From Sphingomonas sp. (GTDB taxonomy: Bacteria; Pseudomonadota; Alphaproteobacteria; Sphingomonadales; Sphingomonadaceae), in NCBI GenBank assembly GCA_019635535.1, contig JAHBZH010000001.1, positions 1,018,995 through 1,082,994 of the forward strand: a stretch of 64,000 nt of DNA. The letters run 5' to 3'. The notes under the pieces were generated by a model. That model saw only the letters and a program-made list of their open reading frames with translations. It had not been told where the DNA came from and searched no databases. Shown here one piece after another: positions 13,109 to 29,178 of the stretch (its first letter is position 1; each line of letters begins with the position of its first letter). The position numbers and the translations under genes are program-made.

Positions 13109-14146
13109 ATGCCCGTCGATGCCTCGCAGGCGCTTTTGTGTTGGTATGCTGTGGATAAGCGACGCCTGCCCTGGCGCGCCGAACCCGGCGATACGCCCGA
13201 TCCCTATCGGGTCTGGCTGTCCGAGATCATGCTCCAGCAGACCACGGTCGCGGCGGTGAAGCCTTATTTCGAACGGTTCACGACGCGCTGGCCCAGTGTC
13301 GTGGCGCTGGCCGCCGAGGAGGACGACGAGGTCATGCGGGCCTGGGCGGGGCTCGGCTACTATGCCCGCGCGCGCAACCTGCTCGCCTGCGCCCGCGCGA
13401 TCGTCGCCGATCATGGCGGGCGTTTCCCCAACGATGAGGCTGCGCTGCTCAACCTGCCCGGCATCGGCCCCTATACCGCCGCCGCGATCGTGGCGATCGC
13501 CTTCGGGCGGCGCGCGGTCGCGGTGGACGGCAATGTCGAGCGGGTGGTGGCGCGGCTGTTCACGGTGGCTGAGCCGCTGCCCGGCGCGCGCGCGCATATC
13601 AGGGCGCTGGCTGACAGCCTCGTGCCGGACGAAGGCGCGGGCGATTTCGCGCAGGCGATGATGGATCTGGGCTCGGCGATCTGCACCCCGCGCAATCCCG
13701 ATTGCCCGCATTGCCCGCTGCAAAGCTATTGCGCGGCGGCGCGGACGGGCGATCCGACGCGCTGGCCGATGAAGGCGCCGAAGGCCGCCAAGCCGAAGCG
13801 CGACGGCCTGGCCTATTGGCTGGAGCATGACGGCGCGGTGCGGCTGGTGCGCCGGCCCGGCAAGGGGCTGCTCGGCGGGATGTTCGCCTTGCCCGAAGCG
13901 CCGCCTATGCCGGCCGACTGGTGCGAGGCCGGGTCGGTTGACCATGTCTTCACCCATTTCGCGCTCAACATGAAGCTGCTGTGCGCGCGGGCCGAACGTC
14001 GCGACGACGGGCTGTGGTGGCCGGTCGAGAGGATCGGCGAAGCAGGCCTGCCCACTTTGTTCGCCAAGCTGGCCGCCCGGGGCGTTGCGTGGCGGGAAAG
14101 CGGGCAGCCGGCCCGGCGTGGGAGAATGAAGGAGACCGTATCTTGA
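13109..14146 (+). CDS. mutY: A/G-specific adenine glycosylase
   Basis: LPWR, SEIMLQQT, GLGYYARARNL, HhH LPGIGPYTA, VDGNV, CTPRNPDCPHCPLQSYC Fe-S motif. Confidence 0.93.
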   Translation: MPVDASQALLCWYAVDKRRLPWRAEPGDTPDPYRVWLSEIMLQQTTVAAVKPYFERFTTRWPSVVALAAEEDDEVMRAWAGLGYYARARNLLACARAIVADHGGRFPNDEAALLNLPGIGPYTAAAIVAIAFGRRAVAVDGNVERVVARLFTVAEPLPGARAHIRALADSLVPDEGAGDFAQAMMDLGSAICTPRNPDCPHCPLQSYCAAARTGDPTRWPMKAPKAAKPKRDGLAYWLEHDGAVRLVRRPGKGLLGGMFALPEAPPMPADWCEAGSVDHVFTHFALNMKLLCARAERRDDGLWWPVERIGEAGLPTLFAKLAARGVAWRESGQPARRGRMKETVS

Positions 14147-16715: not shown

Positions 16716-16757
16716 CGATCTCCTTGTGTATTATTCACATAATACACAAGGAGATCG
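16716..16757. repeat. Perfect 19-bp inverted repeat with a 4-nt loop covering an RBS
   Basis: CGATCTCCTTGTGTATTAT-TCAC-ATAATACACAAGGAGATCG. Confidence 0.9.
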
Positions 16758-16760
16758 GTT

Positions 16761-19721: not shown

Positions 19722-20369
19722 ATGCGGCGGGGGCTCCTCCTGGCGACGATGCTGGTGTTGGCGGGATGCATCCCGCGCAGCGAGCCGCGCGCGCCGCCGC
19801 GGTCGGAGCCGCCGCCGCGCGCCACGGCCCAGCCCGATGCGGCGACCCGGCAATGCTTTGGCGAGCTGGCGCGCGAAGGCGTGCGCTTCCAGCCGCTGCC
19901 GGACCGGCATTTCCAGAACGGCTGCTCGGCGCTCGGCGCGGTGCAGCTCGAGGAGATCGGCACGCCCGTCGCCAATCTCGGCGCGATGACCTGCCGGCTC
20001 GCCCGCCAGTTCGCGCGCTGGACGCGCGAGGCGGTGCAGCCCGCCGCCGGCCGCTTCCTGGGATCGCCGGTGCGGCGGATCGAGACGTTCGGCACCTATT
20101 CGTGCCGCAGCGTCAACAGCCGCCCGGGCGCGCGCCTGTCCGAACATGCCTATGCCAATGCGGTGGACGTGGCCGCCTTCGTCCTTGCCGACGGCCGGCG
20201 CGTCACGGTGGAGCAGGGCTGGCGCGGTGGCCTGGACGAGCAGGATTTCCTGCGCGCGATCCATCAGGCGGGTTGCCGCCGTTTCAGCATCACAATCGGA
20301 CCCGACGCCGACGCCTATCATCAGGACCATCTCCATTTCGATATGGGACGCGGCCCCTATTGCCGCTGA
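19722..20369 (+). CDS. Extensin-like family lipoprotein
   Basis: Lipobox LAGC; GTYSCR, SEHAYANAVD, HQDHLHFD. Confidence 0.85.
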   Translation: MRRGLLLATMLVLAGCIPRSEPRAPPRSEPPPRATAQPDAATRQCFGELAREGVRFQPLPDRHFQNGCSALGAVQLEEIGTPVANLGAMTCRLARQFARWTREAVQPAAGRFLGSPVRRIETFGTYSCRSVNSRPGARLSEHAYANAVDVAAFVLADGRRVTVEQGWRGGLDEQDFLRAIHQAGCRRFSITIGPDADAYHQDHLHFDMGRGPYCR

Positions 20370-20427
20370 ATCAGGGGCTTGGAGGTTAAGGATTCACCTT
20401 CGGCCGAAACCGCTCTAAAGCCGGGTG

Positions 20428-21303
20428 ATGACAGACCCAGTTCCGCCGAAGCGCGTTTTCCATCCCGCCCGCGAGGAGGCCGCGACGGCCGCCCACGCGA
20501 CCGTCAGCCCGCAGACCGTCACGCCGGCCTATCGCCTGGCTTTTCAGGACATGGATTTCCTGCTGCGCGAGGATTTGCGGCCGGTCCGCTTCCAGCTCGA
20601 ACTGCTCAAGCCCGAGCTGCTGCTCGACGAGGCGAATATCGCGACCACCTTCGTCTTCTACGGATCGGCGCGGATTCCGGAGCCGTCCAAGGCGCAGGCT
20701 TTGGTCGATGCCGCCGCCACCGATCATCAGCGGCTGGTCGCCGAACGGCTCAAGGCGAAAGCGAAATATTATGACGAGGCGCGCAAGCTCGCCCGTATCG
20801 TCAGCCGCGTCGGCCCGGACACCGAAGGGCGCCGCCAGTTCGTCGTCTGCTCGGGCGGCGGGCCCTCGATTATGGAAGCCGCCAATCGCGGCGCCACGGA
20901 CGAGGGGAAAGAGTCCATCGGGCTCAACATCGTGCTGCCGCACGAGCAGCATCCCAATGCCTATGTGACCCCGGACCTGTCCTTCCAGTTCCACTATTTC
21001 GCGCTAAGGAAGATGCACTTCCTGCTGCGTGCGCGGGCGGTGGCGGTGTTCCCGGGCGGGTTCGGGACGTTCGACGAATCGTTCGAGCTGCTGACCCTTA
21101 TCCAGACCGGCAAGATCAAGCCGATGCCGATCATCTTCTTCGGCCGTGAATTCTGGGACCGGGTGGTCAATTTCCAGGCGCTGGTCGACGAAGGCGTGAT
21201 CTCGCAGGCCGATCTCGACCTGTTTTCCTTCTGCGAGACGGCGGAAGAGGCCTGGGAGATCGTCTGTCGCCATTATGCGGAGACGCCGGGGGCGATCTGC
21301 TGA
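20428..21303 (+). CDS. LOG family protein (TIGR00730-like)
   Basis: FYGSAR, SGGGPSIMEAANRGA, FHYFALRK, FPGGFGTFDE. Confidence 0.9.
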   Translation: MTDPVPPKRVFHPAREEAATAAHATVSPQTVTPAYRLAFQDMDFLLREDLRPVRFQLELLKPELLLDEANIATTFVFYGSARIPEPSKAQALVDAAATDHQRLVAERLKAKAKYYDEARKLARIVSRVGPDTEGRRQFVVCSGGGPSIMEAANRGATDEGKESIGLNIVLPHEQHPNAYVTPDLSFQFHYFALRKMHFLLRARAVAVFPGGFGTFDESFELLTLIQTGKIKPMPIIFFGREFWDRVVNFQALVDEGVISQADLDLFSFCETAEEAWEIVCRHYAETPGAIC

Positions 21304-21304
21304 C

Positions 21305-22093
21305 ATGGGCTGGTTCGGCCCGAAGCTGCCGATCGACCTGGACGAGCTGGATTTCCAGCTCGCCACCTTCAAATGGCTGATCGCGCAATTCGGGCCGGTG
21401 GGCGGGCAATTGCTGATCCTCCCGACGCGCGCGTTCTTCCCGCTTTCCGGCGCCGGCGGAGAAGCCGGCGTCCTTGAAATTTTCGAAGCGGTGCGTGGTC
21501 ATGCGGGCATGGCGGACTGGCCCTGCGAGCTGCAGGGCGGCCAGCAGAATCGCCCCTTCGACGTGGGTAACAACATTTTCCTGAAGCATAGCGGCAGCGC
21601 GCCCTGCGGGACCTTCGAGATCGGCGAAGGCCCGACCGGAACTTGCGGCATCATCACCTACAATCCCGACATGGCGCACGACATGGCGGGGCTGGCGGCG
21701 ACCTTCGCGCACGAATTCGGCCATTATCTGATGGCGACGGCGACGACCGCCCCGCCGGGCGGTTGGGACCTGCATGAGCTGCACACCGATCTTGCCGCCA
21801 TCTATCTCGGCTTCGGCATCTTCCTTGCCAATCACGCACGCTCGTTCGAGCATTTCGCGACCGAAGGCAGCACGGGCTGGCGCAGCTCTATCCAGGGCTA
21901 TCTGAGCGAGCAGGCGCTGGTGACGGCCCTTTGCATATTCCAGCGTCTTGCCGGCCGGGAACCGGCCGAGGCGGAGCCCCACCTGAAGCCCTATCTGACG
22001 AGCGTCCTCAAAAATGCCGACAAGGCACTGCGCAAGACCGCGCCGGATATGATGGCGGCGGTCGAGGCGATGAATCTCGACGATTTCGCCTGA
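21305..22093 (+). CDS. Hypothetical protein with HExxH motif
   Basis: Clean ORF closely coupled to the LOG gene; FAHEFGH. Confidence 0.7.
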   Translation: MGWFGPKLPIDLDELDFQLATFKWLIAQFGPVGGQLLILPTRAFFPLSGAGGEAGVLEIFEAVRGHAGMADWPCELQGGQQNRPFDVGNNIFLKHSGSAPCGTFEIGEGPTGTCGIITYNPDMAHDMAGLAATFAHEFGHYLMATATTAPPGGWDLHELHTDLAAIYLGFGIFLANHARSFEHFATEGSTGWRSSIQGYLSEQALVTALCIFQRLAGREPAEAEPHLKPYLTSVLKNADKALRKTAPDMMAAVEAMNLDDFA

Positions 22094-22094
22094 A

Positions 22095-22727
22095 TCACTC
22101 GGCGGCGGGCGCGGCCGCGTTGGCTTCGGCCGGCGCGGCCTCATTGCCCTCCGCGGGTGCCGCTTCGTTGCCCGCTTCGGCCGCCGGCTCCTCGACCGCG
22201 GGCGGCGGCGGGAGCTGCAGATTGCCCCCCTGCTGGTTCATGTAGAGCAGCAGGTCGGCGCGTTCCTGCGGATTGGACAGGCCTGCGAAGGTCATCCGGG
22301 TGCCCGGCGCGAAGGTGCGGGGTGAGGCCAGCCAGGCGCTCATCGTGTCCCAGTCCCAGGTGCCGCCGCGCGAGCGCAGCGCATCCGAGAAATTGAAGCC
22401 GGCATGACCGGTACCGACGGCCTCGCCCATCACGCCGTAGAGATTCGGGCCGAGGCCGTTGGCACCGCCCTGGTTGATCGTGTGGCAGGCGGCGCACTTG
22501 CGGAAGGCGCCTTCGCCGCGGGCCGCATCGGCGGTCTGCAGGAAGTGGGCGATCGGCGGCTCCGCGTCGGCGGCGCCGGACGATTCTTCCTCCACGCCCT
22601 CGATCGGATAGCCCATCGTTTCGGGGCGTTCCGACTTGAAGACCTGCCCGGTGACCAGCGTGCTGCCCAACAGGACGATGCCCGCGCCCAGCACCCATCC
22701 CGCAATCGTGTTGAACCGATCGTCCAT
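22095..22727 (-). CDS. Membrane-anchored cytochrome c (CycM/c2-like)
   Basis: N-terminal TM helix, CAACH, GPNL, PGTRMTFAGL. Confidence 0.92.
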   Translation of the reverse strand: MDDRFNTIAGWVLGAGIVLLGSTLVTGQVFKSERPETMGYPIEGVEEESSGAADAEPPIAHFLQTADAARGEGAFRKCAACHTINQGGANGLGPNLYGVMGEAVGTGHAGFNFSDALRSRGGTWDWDTMSAWLASPRTFAPGTRMTFAGLSNPQERADLLLYMNQQGGNLQLPPPPAVEEPAAEAGNEAAPAEGNEAAPAEANAAAPAAE

Positions 22728-22857
22728 GCCGCTTTCTTGCCTCCGAAGGTGCGCGGCCTCCCCTGGCCGGCTTCAAGCTGATTGGCGCCCCCTTTATGCG
22801 GGCGCGGCGCGCGCCGCAAGCCGGGCACGCACCTAAGGCGAAAGCGGGCCGGCGCAC

Positions 22858-22925
22858 TTATTCCCGTTATCCTCATTATCCACAGGCGGAATCCGTTTGG
22901 TGCGACTCACTTTTCATGACAGCCT
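22858..22925 (+). promoter_or_regulatory. Promoter module of large element 1
   Basis: Tandem TTATTCCCG-TTATCCTCA-TTATCCACA (22858-22884); GANTC at 22889 and 22904; TTGGTG-N17-CAGCCT. Confidence 0.55.
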
Positions 22926-22930
22926 TCCTT

Positions 22931-23664
22931 CCGTGGCAGAGACGATCGACCGGCAACGGACGAGAGCCTTCCCAGCCACGGCCCGAGCGAGGAGCCCTTG
23001 CGTCCCACCAGACGAAAGGTCCGAGCGGAGGCGGGGCGGCTGACGAAGCCGCCGCCAGGCGGAAGCTGCGGACTTGTCCTTTGGCGGATGCGAAAGCGGC
23101 AGGCTTCGTGAAGCGCCCAACCGGAACCGGAGGCCTTCGGGCGGACGGGACCGGGCAGGCAGGAAGAGAATCCTTCGGGGTTCGCGAACTGCCCGGTGGA
23201 AAGCGGGATCTTCGGATTTACGCACCGCCACCGGCGAGAAGGGAGGTTTCGGCCGAACGGATTGTCGGGCAGGACCGGGCCTGGTTCCCGGGAGCTGCGA
23301 AACCGGCGAGAGCCCAGGGCTTCGGCTCATGGCTCGCCAGGCGGAACCAGCGGCTTCGGCCAAGGATCCCGCCGGCTCCGGCACCAAGGCTTCGGCGGCG
23401 GTGACGGGAAGGCGGGAAGCGGAACGCGAGTTCCAAATCCGCCAAGCGGCGAACCGCCAGGGCTTCGGCCCTGACGGGGAGCCTGCGGGGAAACCCGAAC
23501 GAAGCTCACGCTTCGGGAAGGGACTCCGGGAACCGAAGCCAAGGCCCCCGGCCTGGTCAGGTTTCGAAATCGCCCTCGCGGACTGCCTCGCCTCCCAGGC
23601 TTGGTGTTCACCCGCGGCGGGACAGTGGGGGCCGGCGGCAACGCCGGCCCCCATTGCTGTTTCG
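22931..23664 (+). ncRNA. Candidate large structured ncRNA, copy 1 (about 730 nt); family not recognised
   Basis: About 9 UUCG-loop hairpins plus GAAA/GCAA loops on the + strand; ends shared with 25243-25692; own terminator; start inferred. Confidence 0.65.
23624..23664 (+). terminator. Terminator of large element 1
   Basis: TGGGGGCCGGCG-GCAA-CGCCGGCCCCCA then TTGCTGTTTC. Confidence 0.7.
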
Positions 23665-23716
23665 GCCTTGGCGCCGCCCGGCGCGCCCGATCGGCCCTGC
23701 TGCGGTTTCCCCCTGC

Positions 23717-23745
23717 TTGATCTGGCGCAAGACAGGCGCGATAGT
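23717..23745 (+). promoter_or_regulatory. Putative sigma70 promoter of the bactofilin gene
   Basis: TTGATC-N17-GATAGT upstream of RBS GAGGAGG. Confidence 0.4.
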
Positions 23746-23769
23746 CCCCGCCAAGCGAGGAGGGGCCAC

Positions 23770-24264
23770 ATGTTCTCACGCAAGGATTCGAAGCCCGGCA
23801 CGCGGTCCGGCCGATCGTCGTCGTCCGGTCTGTCCTTCATCGGGCCGGAGGTGGTGATCAGCGGCGATCTGACCACCAGCGCACAGCTCCATGTCGACGG
23901 GCGCATCGACGGCCATGTCCGTTGCGGCCAGCTTTGCCAGGGCGAAAGCGGAATCATCGCCGGCGATCTCACCGCCGACGAGGCGCGAATCGCGGGCCTG
24001 ATCGAAGGCACGGTCAACGCCGCGACGCTGGTCGTCGAGGCGACCGGGCGGATTGCCGGCGACGTGACCTACGAGACGATCAGCATCGCCGCCGGCGCGC
24101 GGATCGACGGCCGGCTCGCCCGGCGCGCGGCGCTGGCGGCCGGGCCGGGTGCCGACGACGTGCTGATCGCGACGCCCACCACGCCCGCCGGCAAGGGCAA
24201 GGCCGCCAGCAGCACCGACCTCTTCCCCGCCGGCAGCAAGCCCGAGGCGCTGGTGGTCGATTGA
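23770..24264 (+). CDS. Bactofilin (polymer-forming cytoskeletal protein)
   Basis: SFIG...ISGDL...LHVDGRIDGHV...GE.G.I.G.L.A....IAG.IEG.V beta-helix pattern; strong RBS before ATG 23770. Confidence 0.88.
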   Translation: MFSRKDSKPGTRSGRSSSSGLSFIGPEVVISGDLTTSAQLHVDGRIDGHVRCGQLCQGESGIIAGDLTADEARIAGLIEGTVNAATLVVEATGRIAGDVTYETISIAAGARIDGRLARRAALAAGPGADDVLIATPTTPAGKGKAASSTDLFPAGSKPEALVVD

Positions 24265-24728
24265 TGGCCAAGCATGTCGCGACGATCGACTGGTCTTCGG
24301 ACGGCCAATTCGCCAGCGGGCGCTACAGCCGGCGTCACGAATGGCGCTTCGACGGCGGCGCCGTGGTGCCGGGCTCCGCGTCGCCCGACGTGGTGCGTGT
24401 GCCCTTTTCCGATCCCGCCGCAGTCGATCCGGAGGAGGCCCTGGTCGCCGCAGCCTCGTCCTGCCACATGCTCGCCTTCCTGTGGGTCGCGCACAAGGCG
24501 GGGTTCGAGGTGGCGAGCTATCGCGACGATGCGGAAGGCACGATGAGCGAGGTCGCGCCGGGGCGCCTGGGCATGACCCGGATCGTGCTGCGGCCCCGGA
24601 TCGTCTTCGCGGGACGCGCGCCGGCCGGCGAGGAGCTGGACCGCCTCCACCACGACGCGCACGAGCAGTGTTTCATCGCCAATTCGATCAAGAGCGAGAT
24701 CGTCATCGAAGTCCCCGCCGAAGCTTGA
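24264..24728 (+). CDS. OsmC family protein
   Basis: YSRRHEW, DPEEALVAAASSCHML, CFIANS. Confidence 0.88.
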   Translation: MAKHVATIDWSSDGQFASGRYSRRHEWRFDGGAVVPGSASPDVVRVPFSDPAAVDPEEALVAAASSCHMLAFLWVAHKAGFEVASYRDDAEGTMSEVAPGRLGMTRIVLRPRIVFAGRAPAGEELDRLHHDAHEQCFIANSIKSEIVIEVPAEA

Positions 24729-24729
24729 G

Positions 24730-25128
24730 CTAAAGGCCCCACCAGGGCAGCTTGGCGTAATAGCCCGTCACGTCCTCATAATCGCGCGGTTGCGGCCGGT
24801 CGGCCTGGTCGAGCCGCATGGTCGGCGCCACTTCGAGTTGCTCGCGGGTGAGATCGATGGCATAGGCGTCGAGATCGACATCGTAGGTCAGCACTTCCCA
24901 CGGCACCGGATGGGCCTTTTCGCTCAGCCCGAGAAAACCGCCGAAGCTCAGCACCGCATAGGCGACCTGGCCGCTGCTTTTGTCGATCATTACCGAATGG
25001 ATCGCCCCGAGCCGCTCCCCAGCGCGATTGTAGACCGGCGTGCCCTCGACGCGCCGTGACGAGATCAGCGCGTTCCGCCGATCGAGCGCCTCGCTTTCGT
25101 TGAGCAGGGGCCGCGCATCCTGAGACAT
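24730..25128 (-). CDS. PRC-barrel domain protein
   Basis: LISSRRVEGTPVYN, IDKSSGQVAYAVLSFGGFLG, PVPW; RBS AAGGAG before ATG 25128. Confidence 0.88.
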   Translation of the reverse strand: MSQDARPLLNESEALDRRNALISSRRVEGTPVYNRAGERLGAIHSVMIDKSSGQVAYAVLSFGGFLGLSEKAHPVPWEVLTYDVDLDAYAIDLTREQLEVAPTMRLDQADRPQPRDYEDVTGYYAKLPWWGL

Positions 25129-25242
25129 GGTCCGTCTCCTTTCCGCCCCCGGAGCGATCGAATATAGCAGGATCGACCGGCGAAAGCACGCTTTCCCGGC
25201 GGGCGCTATGGCGCAGGCGGATGTCTGGAGAGGCTCGATACC

Positions 25243-25283
25243 GCTCAAAGCAATGGGGGCCGACGTCGCCGCCGGCCCCCACT
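25243..25283 (-). terminator. Terminator of large element 2
   Basis: On -: TGGGGGCCGGCG-GCGA-CGTCGGCCCCCA then TTGCTTTG; 33/35 identical to 23624-23658. Confidence 0.7.
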
Positions 25284-25692
25284 TCGCCCGAATCCAAATC
25301 CCGCGCCGGTGAGGGCTTGGGCTCGTCCCGGGAGAGGTTCCGGCCGAGGCCTCGCGGCCCCGGTCGGTCCCTTGGGTTCCATCTGAACGGTCTTGCGACC
25401 TTCGTCCGGTTCCCTGACCTGAAATGTCCCGAAGCATTGCTGCCTCGTCGCCTTTCAGATCGAGATCAGATCTCGGCCGAAGCTTCGACATGATCCCTTC
25501 GCGTTCCTTCCGTCCGAAGACTTCCGGTTCACCGGAGCAGCTGGAAAAGTGGGTTCGGCTTTCGCCTCGCGCTTCTTTCCGCTTCCCCGTCCAGCGCTTC
25601 TTCAGCTTTCTTCCTTGCGGAATTCCGCCATTTCCACCCTGGTCGCTTTCAGCCCTGCTCGTCCGTTGCCGGCCGATCATTCCTGACCGCGA
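25243..25692 (-). ncRNA. Candidate large structured ncRNA, copy 2 (about 450 nt); paralogue of copy 1
   Basis: GNRA and UUCG hairpins on the - strand; shared 5' motif, promoter module and terminator. Confidence 0.65.
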
Positions 25693-25698
25693 AGTTGC

Positions 25699-25777
25699 AG
25701 GCTGACTCGGTTTCCCGAGTCGCGCCAAGCGGAATCTTGCGTATCCTGCCTGTGGATAACGGGGATATCGTGGATAA
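25699..25777 (-). promoter_or_regulatory. Promoter module of large element 2
   Basis: On -: TTATCCACG-ATATCCCCG-TTATCCACA (25777-25751); GANTC at 25704, 25717, 25732; TTGGCG-N18-CAGCCT. Confidence 0.55.
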
Positions 25778-25780
25778 GAT

Positions 25781-26155
25781 TCAAGGGGCGGGCTTGGCGC
25801 CACCGTCGCCAACCGGCGGGGCGTTGCCGCCCGGCACCATGGCCGCGGCCCCCGGGACGATCTCGCGGATGCACTGCATCGTCGCGTCCTGAGCGCCGGA
25901 GCGGGAGACATCGTCGCCTTCGTTCATCAGGTCGCGGGCGCTCTTGCCCGTCATGTGCCGGTCGACGGCACATTCGCAGATCCGCTGGAAGTCAACGCCG
26001 GCGGGCGCGGCTGCGGCCCGTGAGCCCTGGACGCAGCCCTCAACCGCCTTCTCGCGATAGGATTCGCGGAAGCTGTTGTCGAACGCGCTGCCCGGGCCGC
26101 AAGCTGCGAGCAGAACGATGACGGAAACGGAGCCGATGCCGATTGCGAGACGCAT
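25781..26155 (-). CDS. Hypothetical lipoprotein with additional Cys residues
   Basis: Lipobox LAAC; C...CEC...C pattern. Confidence 0.65.
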   Translation of the reverse strand: MRLAIGIGSVSVIVLLAACGPGSAFDNSFRESYREKAVEGCVQGSRAAAAPAGVDFQRICECAVDRHMTGKSARDLMNEGDDVSRSGAQDATMQCIREIVPGAAAMVPGGNAPPVGDGGAKPAP

Positions 26156-26237
26156 GACCTTGATCCCCCTGTCGATTCAAGCGAGCCCCCCGATCCTCGC
26201 CGGACCCTTCGCTTGTAGTCGACCGGACGCGGTGATC

Positions 26238-26618
26238 CTAGAGCGGCATCAAGGCGGCGGCGATCCAGCGGCCTTCCCCGCGCAGCAGCCCCCATGCGCG
26301 CGCCGCCGCGCGGCTGTCCATTGCCTCGACGCCGATGCCCCGCACCTCCAGCGCGAGGACCAAGGCGCGGGGCGGAAAGACCGTTGCCGGACCGGTGCCG
26401 AGCAGCAGGAATTCCGGCGGCGGGGCGAGCGCGAGCAGCGGGGCGACGTCCGCCGCGCCGAGCGCGTCGAGCGGCGGCGGCGACCAGGGCAAGACCCGTT
26501 CCGGGGTCAATAGAACGCCGGCATATCTTTCGTCGCCGATCCGCAGGAGCTTTCCAGCGAAGCCCCGGACGCACGGCCCCGTCGCGGCTGGCGTCCGTTC
26601 AAACCTGGGCGCCGTCAT
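26238..26618 (-). CDS. Mth938-like domain protein
   Basis: LLLGTG, GIGVEAMDSRAAARAWGLL, IAAAL. Confidence 0.85.
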   Translation of the reverse strand: MTAPRFERTPAATGPCVRGFAGKLLRIGDERYAGVLLTPERVLPWSPPPLDALGAADVAPLLALAPPPEFLLLGTGPATVFPPRALVLALEVRGIGVEAMDSRAAARAWGLLRGEGRWIAAALMPL

Positions 26619-27576
26619 AGCCTTCGTTGCGTGCGCCCTTCTGGGCGCGGCTGACCGGATCCTTGGGCAGGAAGCTGTCCGGTGTCACTTTCAGCCAGAT
26701 CAGCCAGGGCGAGGCCACGTACATCGTCGAATAGGCGCCGACGATGACGCTGATCAGCAGCGCCGCGTTGAAGCTGAAGATCACGTCCGGCCCGAGGAAG
26801 AAGAGCGAGCCGAGCGCCAGCAGCATCGCCATGTTGGTGGCGACGGTGCGCGACAGCGTCTCGTTGATCGACAGGTTGATGAGCGCGGTCATCTCCATCT
26901 TGCGGTATTTGCGCAGATTCTCGCGGATGCGGTCGAAGATGACGATATTGTCGTTCAGCGAATAGCCGATCAGCGTCAGCAGCGCCGCGATCACGTTGAG
27001 GTCGAACTCGAGCTGGGTCAGCGCGAGGAAGCCCAGGGTGATCGTGACGTCGTGGAACAGCGAGAAGAGCGAGGCGATGCCGAACTGCCATTCGAAGCGG
27101 AACCAGATGTAGATCGACACGCCGAGCATCGCGAAGAGCAGGGCGAGCGCGCCGGCGCGCACCAGCTCGTCCGACACCTGTCCGGACACGGTTTCGACCG
27201 CGTCGATGCGCGCGCCCGGATAATTGGTCTCGATCGCCTCGCGCACGTCGCTCGCCGCCTGATTCGCCGCTTCCTCGCCGCCGTCGGGCAAAGCCATGCG
27301 GATCGAGATGTCGCGCGGGCTGCCGAATTCCTGGACGGTGGCTTCGGGATGACCGGTGTCGGCGATGCGCTGACGCAGCTCGTCGATGCGCGGCGCCTCG
27401 ACGAAGGTCACGCGGATCATCTGCCCGCCTTCGAAGTCGATGCCGAAATTGAGGCCGCGGACCACCAGCAAGGCGATCGAGGCGGCGATCAAGAGGCCGG
27501 AGATCGTGAAGGCGATCCCGCGCCAGCGCAGGAAATCGAGATTGGTGTTGTCCGGAACGAGCTTGAGCAGACGCAT
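26599..27576 (-). CDS. secF: Protein translocase subunit SecF
   Basis: GIDFEGG, FRFEWQF, IGYSLNDNIVIFDRIRE. Confidence 0.97.
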   Translation of the reverse strand: MRLLKLVPDNTNLDFLRWRGIAFTISGLLIAASIALLVVRGLNFGIDFEGGQMIRVTFVEAPRIDELRQRIADTGHPEATVQEFGSPRDISIRMALPDGGEEAANQAASDVREAIETNYPGARIDAVETVSGQVSDELVRAGALALLFAMLGVSIYIWFRFEWQFGIASLFSLFHDVTITLGFLALTQLEFDLNVIAALLTLIGYSLNDNIVIFDRIRENLRKYRKMEMTALINLSINETLSRTVATNMAMLLALGSLFFLGPDVIFSFNAALLISVIVGAYSTMYVASPWLIWLKVTPDSFLPKDPVSRAQKGARNEGYDGAQV

Positions 27577-27585
27577 GGCTTTACC

Positions 27586-29178
27586 TCACAGCACCAGTTC
27601 GCGCGGCCGCGTGCGCAGCCAGAGCGAGGCGAACATGCGGGTGACGGTCACGGCCGTGTAGACCGAGGTCACGATGCCGATCATCAGCACCACCGCGAAG
27701 CCGCGGATCGGCCCCGAGCCGAAGTAGAAGAGCAACATGCCGGCGATCACGTTGGTGATGTTGGCGTCGAAGATCGCGGAGCGCGCTTCGTTATAACCGT
27801 GCTCGACCGCCTGGACGATGTTGCGCCCTCGTCGCTGCTCCTCGCGGATGCGTTCGTTGATGATGACATTGGCGTCCACCGCGGCGCCGACGGTCAGCAC
27901 GAAGCCGGCGATGCCGGGCAATGTCAAAGTCGCGTTCATCAGCGCCATGACGCCCAGGATGATCGCCACGTTCAGGAAGATCGCGATGTTCGCGAAGATG
28001 CCGAACCGGCCATAGGTGACGAACATGTAGAGCAGCACGAGGCTGCTCCCGACGATCAGCGCGATGATGCCGAGCCGGATCGAATCGTAACCGAGATCGG
28101 GGCCGACGGTGCGCTCCTCGACCACGTTCAGCGCGACCGGCAGGCGGCCGGAGCGCAGCGAGATGGCGAGCTGGTTGGCGGTCTCGACCGTGAAGCCGCC
28201 GGAAATCTGCGCGCTGCCGCCCAGAATGGGCTCGTTGATGTTGGGCGCGGAGATGACGATGTTGTCGAGGATGATCGCGAACGGGCGGTTCACATTCTCC
28301 TGCGTCACCCGGGCGAAGCGGCGGGAGCCGGCGCCGTCGAAACGGATCGTGACGACCGGGGAGCCGTTCTGCGAATCGAAGCCCTGCTGCGCGTCGATGA
28401 TCTGGTCGCCCGAGATCATCGCCCGGCGCTGGACGGCGATGCGGCCGCCTTCGCCGGCGTCCGGATAGGGCAGGATCTGGCTGCCCACCGGCGCGCGACC
28501 GGAGGCCAACTGCTCCGGCGTCGCGCTGCCGTCGACCAGCTTGAACTCGAGCCGTGCGGTGCGCCCGATCAGCGCCTTGAGCGCCTCCGGGTCCTGAAGG
28601 CCCGGCACCTGGACGACGATCCGGTTGCTGCCCTGGCGGATGATCGTCGGCTCCAGCGTGCCCAGCGCGTTGATGCGCCGATCAACGATGTCGCGCGCGA
28701 CCTCCATCGCCTGATCGACCGCCTGGTTGAGCCCCGCCTGGGTCGGGCGCATGACGATGCGCTCGCCCACCAACTGGACCGACCAGTCCGGCTGGCCGGC
28801 GAAGCCGGCGGGCTGGCTCTGGCGCCGCGCAATATCGCGTGCCGCACCGGCCTGGGCCGGGTCGCGCACCGTGAAGCTCAATTGCTCGTCGGCGGTCGAA
28901 AGCTGGGAAATTTCGATGCGCGGGCTGGCGGTGCGCAGCTCGCGCCGCATGATCTCTTCCATCGATTCCAGCCGCTGGCGGGCGACGTCGCTGACATCCG
29001 CCTCGAGCAGCAGGTGGCTGCCGCCGGCGAGATCGAGGCCGAGATTGATTTTCGGCACCAGGATCGCCGGCATGTGCCGGGTGACGGTTTCAGGCAGGAA
29101 GGAAGGGAGCGCGTACCAGGTGCCGATCACGAGCGAAAGCGTGACCGCCCAGATCTTCCAGCGGGGAAAATCGAGCAT
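27586..29178 (-). CDS. secD: Protein translocase subunit SecD
   Basis: LGLDLAGG, IVVQVPG, TLTLPGIAG, AVDANV. Confidence 0.97.
   Translation of the reverse strand: MLDFPRWKIWAVTLSLVIGTWYALPSFLPETVTRHMPAILVPKINLGLDLAGGSHLLLEADVSDVARQRLESMEEIMRRELRTASPRIEISQLSTADEQLSFTVRDPAQAGAARDIARRQSQPAGFAGQPDWSVQLVGERIVMRPTQAGLNQAVDQAMEVARDIVDRRINALGTLEPTIIRQGSNRIVVQVPGLQDPEALKALIGRTARLEFKLVDGSATPEQLASGRAPVGSQILPYPDAGEGGRIAVQRRAMISGDQIIDAQQGFDSQNGSPVVTIRFDGAGSRRFARVTQENVNRPFAIILDNIVISAPNINEPILGGSAQISGGFTVETANQLAISLRSGRLPVALNVVEERTVGPDLGYDSIRLGIIALIVGSSLVLLYMFVTYGRFGIFANIAIFLNVAIILGVMALMNATLTLPGIAGFVLTVGAAVDANVIINERIREEQRRGRNIVQAVEHGYNEARSAIFDANITNVIAGMLLFYFGSGPIRGFAVVLMIGIVTSVYTAVTVTRMFASLWLRTRPRELVL

Follow-up and report, generated by a model that had tools for sequence, protein, structure and literature searches.

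Tandem DnaA-box arrays at the promoters of two paralogous non-coding RNA genes in Sphingomonadaceae

Within a stretch of 64,000 nucleotides from a Sphingomonas sp. genome, analysed as a whole and hereafter referred to as the window, two copies of a compact module constitute the promoters of a pair of paralogous genes whose product is an abundant, structured non-coding RNA. Rather than standing free, the module opens a longer conserved unit at its 5' end. A preliminary description of this DNA had proposed that both elements are transcribed under replication or cell-cycle control. Transcription is now documented by soil metatranscriptomes, whereas control by replication or the cell cycle appears well supported by comparison among genomes, with DnaA and GcrA as the regulators that we infer. 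The reading favoured here is that of a weak extended -10 sigma-70 promoter, probably activated by DnaA and assisted by GcrA, through which RNA output would be tied to replication initiation and S phase.

Results

Architecture of the two modules

Both modules were re-checked against the window, and their strings and coordinates proved exact, base for base. Copy 1 reads TTATTCCCG-TTATCCTCA-TTATCCACA-GGC (22858-22887, +) and copy 2 reads TTATCCACG-ATATCCCCG-TTATCCACA-GGC (25777-25748, -), the two modules pointing towards each other. The 18-mers that follow the boxes are identical between the copies at 15/18 bases, the CAGCCT hexamer occupies 22920-22925 in copy 1 and 25704-25699 in copy 2, and the six GANTC sites (22889, 22904, 25704, 25717, 25732 and 25778) stand where they had been placed. 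The features of both units are as follows.

22858..22866, +: copy 1 box 1, weak DnaA-box-like 9-mer TTATTCCCG
22867..22875, +: copy 1 box 2, weak box TTATCCTCA
22876..22884, +: copy 1 box 3, perfect DnaA box TTATCCACA, closest to the promoter
22889..22893, +: copy 1 first GANTC site (GAATC), 5' of the -35
22897..22902, +: copy 1 -35-like hexamer TTGGTG, 12 nt past box 3 ('short-form' spacer)
22903..22909, +: copy 1 second GANTC site, in the -35/-10 spacer, CGACTCA (lower strand TGAGTCG), GcrA-type, centre at ~-26
22917..22925, +: copy 1 extended -10, TG-A-CAGCCT
22933..23660, +: RNA gene copy 1, ~730 nt, non-coding; start predicted at 22932-22934, RNA-seq 5' end at 22940
23624..23658, +: copy 1 3' GC hairpin, GGGGGCCGGCG-GCAA-CGCCGGCCCCC, conserved across the genus
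25769..25777, -: copy 2 box 1, TTATCCACG
25760..25768, -: copy 2 box 2, ATATCCCCG
25751..25759, -: copy 2 box 3, perfect TTATCCACA
25723..25728, -: copy 2 -35-like hexamer TTGGCG, 22 nt past box 3 ('long form')
25716..25722, -: copy 2 spacer GANTC site, CGACTCG (other strand CGAGTCG), GcrA-type, centre at ~-27
25699..25708, -: copy 2 -10 region GAGT-CAGCCT, overlapped by a further GANTC site (GAGTC, 25708-25704)
25245..25690, -: RNA gene copy 2, ~445 nt; RNA-seq 5' end at 25676
25283-25249, -: copy 2 3' hairpin

DnaA boxes were recognised as 9-mers matching TTATCCACA (TT[A/T]TNCACA). Box 3 is perfect in both copies, and boxes 1 and 2 of both copies carry 1-3 mismatches to TTATCCACA. Relative to the start, the box centres lie at approximately -52/-61/-70 in copy 1 and -63/-72/-81 in copy 2. 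The core hexamers, TTGGTG-17-CAGCCT in copy 1 and TTGGCG-18-CAGCCT in copy 2, match at 5/12 positions a consensus that is the E. coli standard; copy 2 retains only the G of the extended -10 TG, and an E. coli-type consensus promoter scan found no promoter at the modules. Weak core hexamers, taken together with an extremely abundant RNA, fit a dependence on activators.

At copy 2, the stop codon of the upstream ORF (TGA, 25783-25781) overlaps the GANTC site (GAATC, 25778) that adjoins box 1, so that the promoter begins at most 4 nt from the end of the preceding gene.

Rarity of the arrays and location of the likely origin

In this genome of 2.75 Mb and 68% G+C, perfect copies of TTATCCACA number eight against 3.7 expected. 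A genome scan for further modules, accepting three 9-mers in direct succession with up to five mismatches altogether, returned these two loci only, and a composition model predicts ~9e-6 arrays with at most four mismatches per genome. A chance origin of the arrays was consequently rejected, given two loci only and an expectation of ~1e-5 per genome. Similarly, a sequence-only promoter model (A2, R1) gave exactly two matches in the genome. GANTC is scarce genome-wide, with an observed/expected ratio of 0.57 and 1.7 sites per kb, yet six sites fall within ~160 nt at the modules.

Single perfect boxes are found upstream of dnaB, dciA and mraZ in this genome, while its gapR has no DnaA box. One of the eight perfect boxes, TTATCCACAG at window positions 13150-13158 (-; genome C1:1032152), lies in the divergent mutY-dciA intergenic region, 55 nt 5' of a helicase-operator gene of the DciA family (PF05258).

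GC skew is near-flat between 0.4 and 1.15 Mb and marks no sharp origin, and the DUF299-hemE intergenic region (C1:603.65-603.96 kb) was therefore used as the likely oriC. It lies 438 kb from the modules and holds only weak or moderate boxes (TTTTCCACA, TGATCCCCA, CGATCCACA and TCGTCCACA) and an AT-rich patch adjoining hemE. With the likely oriC at this distance and furnished with weak boxes only, the modules are no origin and represent the strongest DnaA arrays on the chromosome. No AT-rich unwinding stretch was found at the modules, and their reading as a second origin was rejected on this ground and on that of the likely oriC elsewhere.

Transcription and coding potential

That both elements are transcribed, as had been anticipated, is borne out by two soil metatranscriptomes, which cover 22940-23625 (+) and 25676-25314 (-). 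Their summed contig depth ranges from thousands to ~2e5 over the RNA bodies, and boxes, core promoter and flanking genes have zero depth; the reads of a soil DNA run are spread evenly along the whole stretch at ~10x. Three contig variants (depth 900-1200 each) start exactly at 22940, right behind the Illumina read-2 adapter, one contig (depth 2800) starts at 25676, and read-1 adapters stand at the distal ends, 23625 and 25314. This adapter orientation fits a stranded library and transcripts heading away from the boxes. The start of transcription had been expected after CAGCCT, and the adapter-joined 5' ends indeed lie 15 nt (copy 1) and 23 nt (copy 2) past this hexamer. Both distances exceed the usual 6-8 nt after a -10 hexamer, an offset that could reflect 5'-end loss in library preparation, RNA processing or a misplaced -10. 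We take the 5' ends to be slightly trimmed or processed, and the starts to lie probably near 22933 and 25690, where the conserved GTGG motif begins. The sequence was present only in metagenome and metatranscriptome runs, and no RNA-seq of a cultured carrier was found.

Each unit runs from the promoter module through a 350-750-nt non-coding body to a conserved GC hairpin. The module is followed by a conserved stretch, GTGGC..CCGGCAACGG, by a variable body with many CTTCGG and GNRA hairpins, and by the 35-nt GC hairpin, which is 94% alike between copies 1 and 2. A 1.6-kb gene block separates the two inverted copies, and the genes 3' of the units code for a bactofilin (copy 1) and a PRC-barrel protein (copy 2). 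Long ORFs across the region (202, 367 and 396 aa) were rejected as coding on the basis of indel lengths and phase-even substitutions: in comparison with three orthologues (~76% identity), 14-20 of 19-23 indels are of frame-shifting length, mostly measuring 1-2 nt, and substitutions in the RNA bodies are spread evenly over the three codon phases. Rfam covariance models run at permissive thresholds gave no match to the RNA bodies with E <1 in 20000-29000, the sole match in this interval being a chance isrG match outside the RNA bodies. The 3' hairpin obtained no classical-terminator score in an E. coli-type terminator scan.

The 3' hairpin, followed by ATTGCT (23624-23658, 25249-25283), is conserved across the genus far beyond an ordinary terminator. 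RNA-seq cover is nearly nil over both 3' hairpins, and the abundant species stop at ~23625 and ~25314. Furthermore, metatranscriptome contigs join distant points of copy 1 (window 23100-23500), skipping 64-328 nt between CTTCGG-type hairpins, which suggests that relatives carry varying numbers of hairpin modules; a varying number of hairpins fits the 350-1500 nt that separate boxes and 3' hairpin across the genus.

Conservation in Sphingomonadaceae

BLAST searches identified the unit in 24/24 other sampled genomes of the genus (Allosphingosinicella by GTDB), where it is best preserved at the boxes and the 3' hairpin. At the family level, the promoter model (A2, R1) matched in 24/112 genera of Sphingomonadaceae. 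R1 gave no match outside this family in the order-level sample, and a BLAST search with copy 1 against 16 genomes of other families of the order returned nothing. The family layout consists of an invariant consensus box, two weak boxes, a 12- or 22-nt spacer, a weak -35, the spacer GANTC and an extended -10, and RNA promoter elements follow the array in all 76 RNA-type copies collected in Sphingomonadaceae.

The constraint on each box was assessed in a set of 62 copies, defined by NN[A/T]TCCACAG at box 3 and upstream 9-mers with a TCC/CC core, the weak boxes being otherwise unconstrained. Box 3 is TTATCCACA in 55/62 copies, with TTTTCCACA, CTATCCACA and TAATCCACA as the sole variants, and information content falls to zero 2-3 nt 5' of box 1. 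The family consensus is TTATCCCCG for box 1 and (T/A)TATCC(T/C)CG for box 2, both boxes being held off-consensus by a pyrimidine (C or T) at position 7 and by G at position 9. Indeed, A occurs at position 7 of box 2 in 5/62 copies only, which indicates that this box is held non-consensus.

Two distances prevail between box 3 and the spacer GANTC: 18-19 nt, seen in 12 copies with copy 1 among them, and 28-29 nt, seen in 56 with copy 2 among them. Almost no copies fall between the two classes; the long form (22-nt spacer, copy 2) is the commoner one in the sampled family. A step of 10 bp preserves the same helical face and is as expected for a face-of-helix activator, although it may go back to perhaps one deletion event, and its statistical weight is therefore small. 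The family core reads TT(G/T)nnn, CGACTCG, 8-9 nt and TG-n-(C/G)AGC(T/A)T. Its extended -10 has the consensus TGa(C/G)AGC(T/A)T with the A (position 2) and the T (position 6) conserved; counted from the start, the family keeps TG at -15/-14, A at -11 and T at -7.

GANTC sites, GcrA and CcrM

Family-wide conservation among the six GANTC sites is confined to the -35/-10 spacer position. The upstream site (22889/25732), mostly GA(A/T)TC, is conserved mainly within the genus and not across the family, and the remaining copy 2 sites are not conserved. A symmetric operator formed by two GANTC sites was rejected: the palindromic relation is limited to some species, which leaves GANTC itself as the conserved feature. 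The spacer 7-mer is CGACTCG (49), CGACTCA (10) or CGAATCG (7) in 66/76 copies. Their lower-strand readings, CGAGTCG, TGAGTCG and CGATTCG, all fit YGAKTCG, with a central base that varies within K only.

The published GcrA motif is YGAKTCK/YGAKTCG, and published GcrA sites fall into classes at -20 +/- 1, at -30 +/- 2 or at +5 to +30 (PMC4647560, PMC9976885). As in the Caulobacter GcrA/CcrM sigma-70 promoters described in the same studies, a YGAKTCG-type GANTC is located here in the -35/-10 spacer of a weak promoter. Unlike those sites, the present, putative one follows a lower-strand reading and is centred at ~-26/-27 from the predicted +1, as against -20 +/- 1 and -30 +/- 2; it thus falls just outside the latter class, and would lie further upstream if the RNA-seq ends were the true starts. 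GcrA is encoded in the genome (PF07750, 146 bits), as is a CcrM orthologue, a 385-aa methyltransferase with a full-length alignment to Caulobacter CcrM (6pbd, E 1e-154), which scores 620 bits against the NCBIfam CcrM model, under its 830-bit cut-off.

Related arrays in other Alphaproteobacteria

The DnaA of this genome matches TIGR00362 and aligns with the E. coli DNA-binding domain IV (1J1V, E 2.6e-28), the ARPRQ and GGRDHTTV motifs being kept. The abutting pair TATCCNCNTTATCCACAG was present in 11/400 evenly sampled alphaproteobacterial genomes, this genome not counted, and its reversed-pattern control in 0/401 genomes. In 11/11 of these genomes the pair was found at gapR (3), at dnaB (4), beside hemE (2), which is a classical neighbour of the origin (PMC6393856), or in box-rich/AT-rich origin-like DNA (2).

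A wider array scan with the pattern CCCNNTATCCNCNTTATCCACAG, conducted with one genome per species, identified at least 120 loci. Among the matches listed, most are sphingomonad RNA promoters, the non-sphingomonad alphaproteobacterial arrays sit 35-100 nt 5' of dnaB or gapR, with at least seven further gapR and at least four further dnaB cases beyond the even sample, and the Firmicute matches are abutting perfect boxes. In the gapR promoters of other orders, the array lies 11-12 nt 5' of their -35. The placement of the array at gapR, dnaB and origin-type regions is a strong, indirect argument, drawn from comparison, that it would be bound by DnaA.

The same 27-bp triple array occurs by the gapR -35 or just 5' of dnaB in Rhodospirillales-like genomes, in Dongia and in other alphaproteobacterial genomes, and gapR promoters additionally display GAGTC and CGATTCG sites in the vicinity of the -10 and of the start. 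These gapR and dnaB arrays look like a conserved signature of a putative DnaA, and perhaps also GcrA, regulon.

Discussion

Proposed mechanism

The mechanism favoured here would start from a sigma-70-type core promoter with weak hexamers, aided in copy 1 by the extended -10. DnaA would nucleate at the invariant consensus box 3 beside the promoter and spread co-operatively from there onto the two abutting weak boxes, in the way in which low-affinity sites are filled at origins. Seated on a fixed helix face just 5' of the -35, the array would then allow DnaA to aid RNA polymerase. CcrM would methylate the spacer GANTC, and the sigma-70 cofactor GcrA would read it. In such a DnaA-then-GcrA feed-forward gate, RNA synthesis would track replication-initiation potential and S phase. 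Activation as the sign of the DnaA effect, together with its timing, is what we infer for this promoter.

Alternative readings

DnaA might instead bind and repress the promoter, with the RNA building up when active DnaA is scarce, as under starvation or slow growth, and marking non-replicating cells, a scenario that we consider unlikely. It would accommodate the extreme abundance of the RNA in soil metatranscriptomes, most cells there being slow-growing; a gene activated by DnaA-ATP would not obviously yield high abundance under slow growth, except through a very stable RNA. Furthermore, repression by DnaA is known for several promoters, among them dnaA and nrdAB at high DnaA-ATP (PMC8203912). 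However, the boxes lie wholly 5' of the -35 and the weak boxes reach away from the promoter, which makes occlusion unlikely; a 10-bp spacer quantum is typical of activation, and the core promoter is too weak for the abundance of the RNA without help.

It seems improbable that the arrays are mainly chromosomal DnaA sinks or handling sites, akin to datA and DARS of E. coli or the B. subtilis clusters, where the promoter only modulates occupancy, even if such a function could coexist with a promoter role. The arrays resemble these systems as DnaA-box clusters outside oriC, a few hundred kb away, and they are the sole multi-box arrays with a perfect box in the genome, and the best that the hemE-side origin region offers is a single box with one mismatch. 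In six genomes with the loci and hemE on one contig, 250-600 kb separate the two, a mild origin bias, but this trend with origin distance is weak and, in complete genomes, confounded by synteny. The distance and phase of the array are, in contrast, locked to the promoter family-wide, which is needless for a sink, and whereas datA, DARS and the B. subtilis clusters act on DnaA itself, the boxes described here are phase-locked to a strong promoter.

We regard as very improbable that another protein reads tandem TTATCC-type repeats whose likeness to DnaA boxes is coincidental. A gapless 9-bp period is unusual for DnaA arrays, those of E. coli oriC being 2-bp-spaced as against the period of 9 of the abutting 9-mers, and two of the three boxes have 1-3 mismatches. 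Nevertheless, box 3 matches the universal consensus exactly, and the variants it shows in nature (TTTTCCACA among others) are classical for DnaA boxes; in other orders the array also marks dnaB, gapR, origins beside hemE and one box-rich origin, and the Firmicute matches among those listed consist of perfect boxes in abutment. Finally, the module as a relic or part of a replication origin or of a mobile element, with no promoter, can be practically dismissed: DnaA-box arrays are a hallmark of origins and the copies flank a 1.6-kb gene block in inverted orientation, but the loci are stable across the whole family and transcription begins directly downstream.

Relation to known systems

The DnaA-regulated promoters reviewed previously comprise nrdAB and dnaA of E. 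coli, gcrA, ftsZ and mipZ of Caulobacter and nurR of Sinorhizobium (PMC8203912). Like the modules, they place boxes of both high and low affinity beside a sigma-70 promoter, and in alphaproteobacteria they belong to a DnaA-GcrA-CtrA cascade. Their targets are protein genes, and the review of DnaA transcriptional activity names no RNA or sRNA target (PMC8203912), whereas the arrays described here precede a large abundant non-coding RNA. Moreover, the modules differ in having three 9-mers that abut in the same direction, of which one is consensus and two are weak, in the lock of this array to the helical face of the -35, and in the GcrA-type site added inside the spacer.

The closest likeness in arrangement was provided by the gapR, dnaB and origin arrays of other alphaproteobacterial orders, which share a near-identical 27 bp, ..CCCCG-(A/T)TATCC(C/A)CG-TTATCCACAG, in the same orientation, and, in the case of gapR, the same 11-12-nt distance to the -35. 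The arrays of those orders serve replication genes or oriC; in Sphingomonadaceae, in contrast, the array stands at RNA genes, with one box each at dnaB and dciA and none at gapR.

CcnA, a cell-cycle non-coding RNA of Caulobacter, is reportedly short and CtrA-dependent. It parallels the present case as a non-coding RNA wired to an alphaproteobacterial cell-cycle master regulator (PMC8959179). Compared with CcnA and with the sites near other Caulobacter non-coding RNAs, the RNAs described here are of 445-730 nt and their array is conserved across the family. In the literature on DnaA-box-controlled sRNAs, in sphingomonads or elsewhere, we found only unvalidated single-site predictions for Caulobacter, in which the DnaA sites near non-coding RNAs are single matrix matches that were never validated (PMC5988900), and we found no paper on this array or this RNA.

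Significance

Taken together, the data invite a tentative and rather unlikely joint reading, in which the array is an ancient alphaproteobacterial 'DnaA read-out' element, found at oriC, dnaB and gapR, that was moved in Sphingomonadaceae onto a large structured RNA; the RNA would be a working part of a replication or cell-cycle circuit, with the arrays possibly as the main off-origin DnaA sinks. If so, the RNA could report or buffer initiation potential. As a transcription factor, DnaA is known for a handful of protein genes. Its control of this promoter, if true, would be the first well-supported case that we found of a large, abundant RNA (0.4-0.7 kb) under the replication initiator, and would provide a handle on an orphan RNA through the timing of its synthesis and the regulators to remove.

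The compact 27-bp element, in which a strong box and two weak ones follow each other without gaps, recurs at gapR, dnaB and origins across Alphaproteobacteria. It could make DnaA regulons of uncultured lineages predictable from their genomes, and may offer a simple natural substrate for DnaA oligomerisation on closely packed sites.

Elsewhere in the window, a 40-nt near-perfect palindrome, GATCTCCTTGTGTATTAT-TCAC-ATAATACACAAGGAGATC, was observed at 16716-16758, with a Shine-Dalgarno-like AAGGAG motif in each arm. It adjoins the start of a gene for a small basic protein (-) and looks like an operator or a translational control hairpin.
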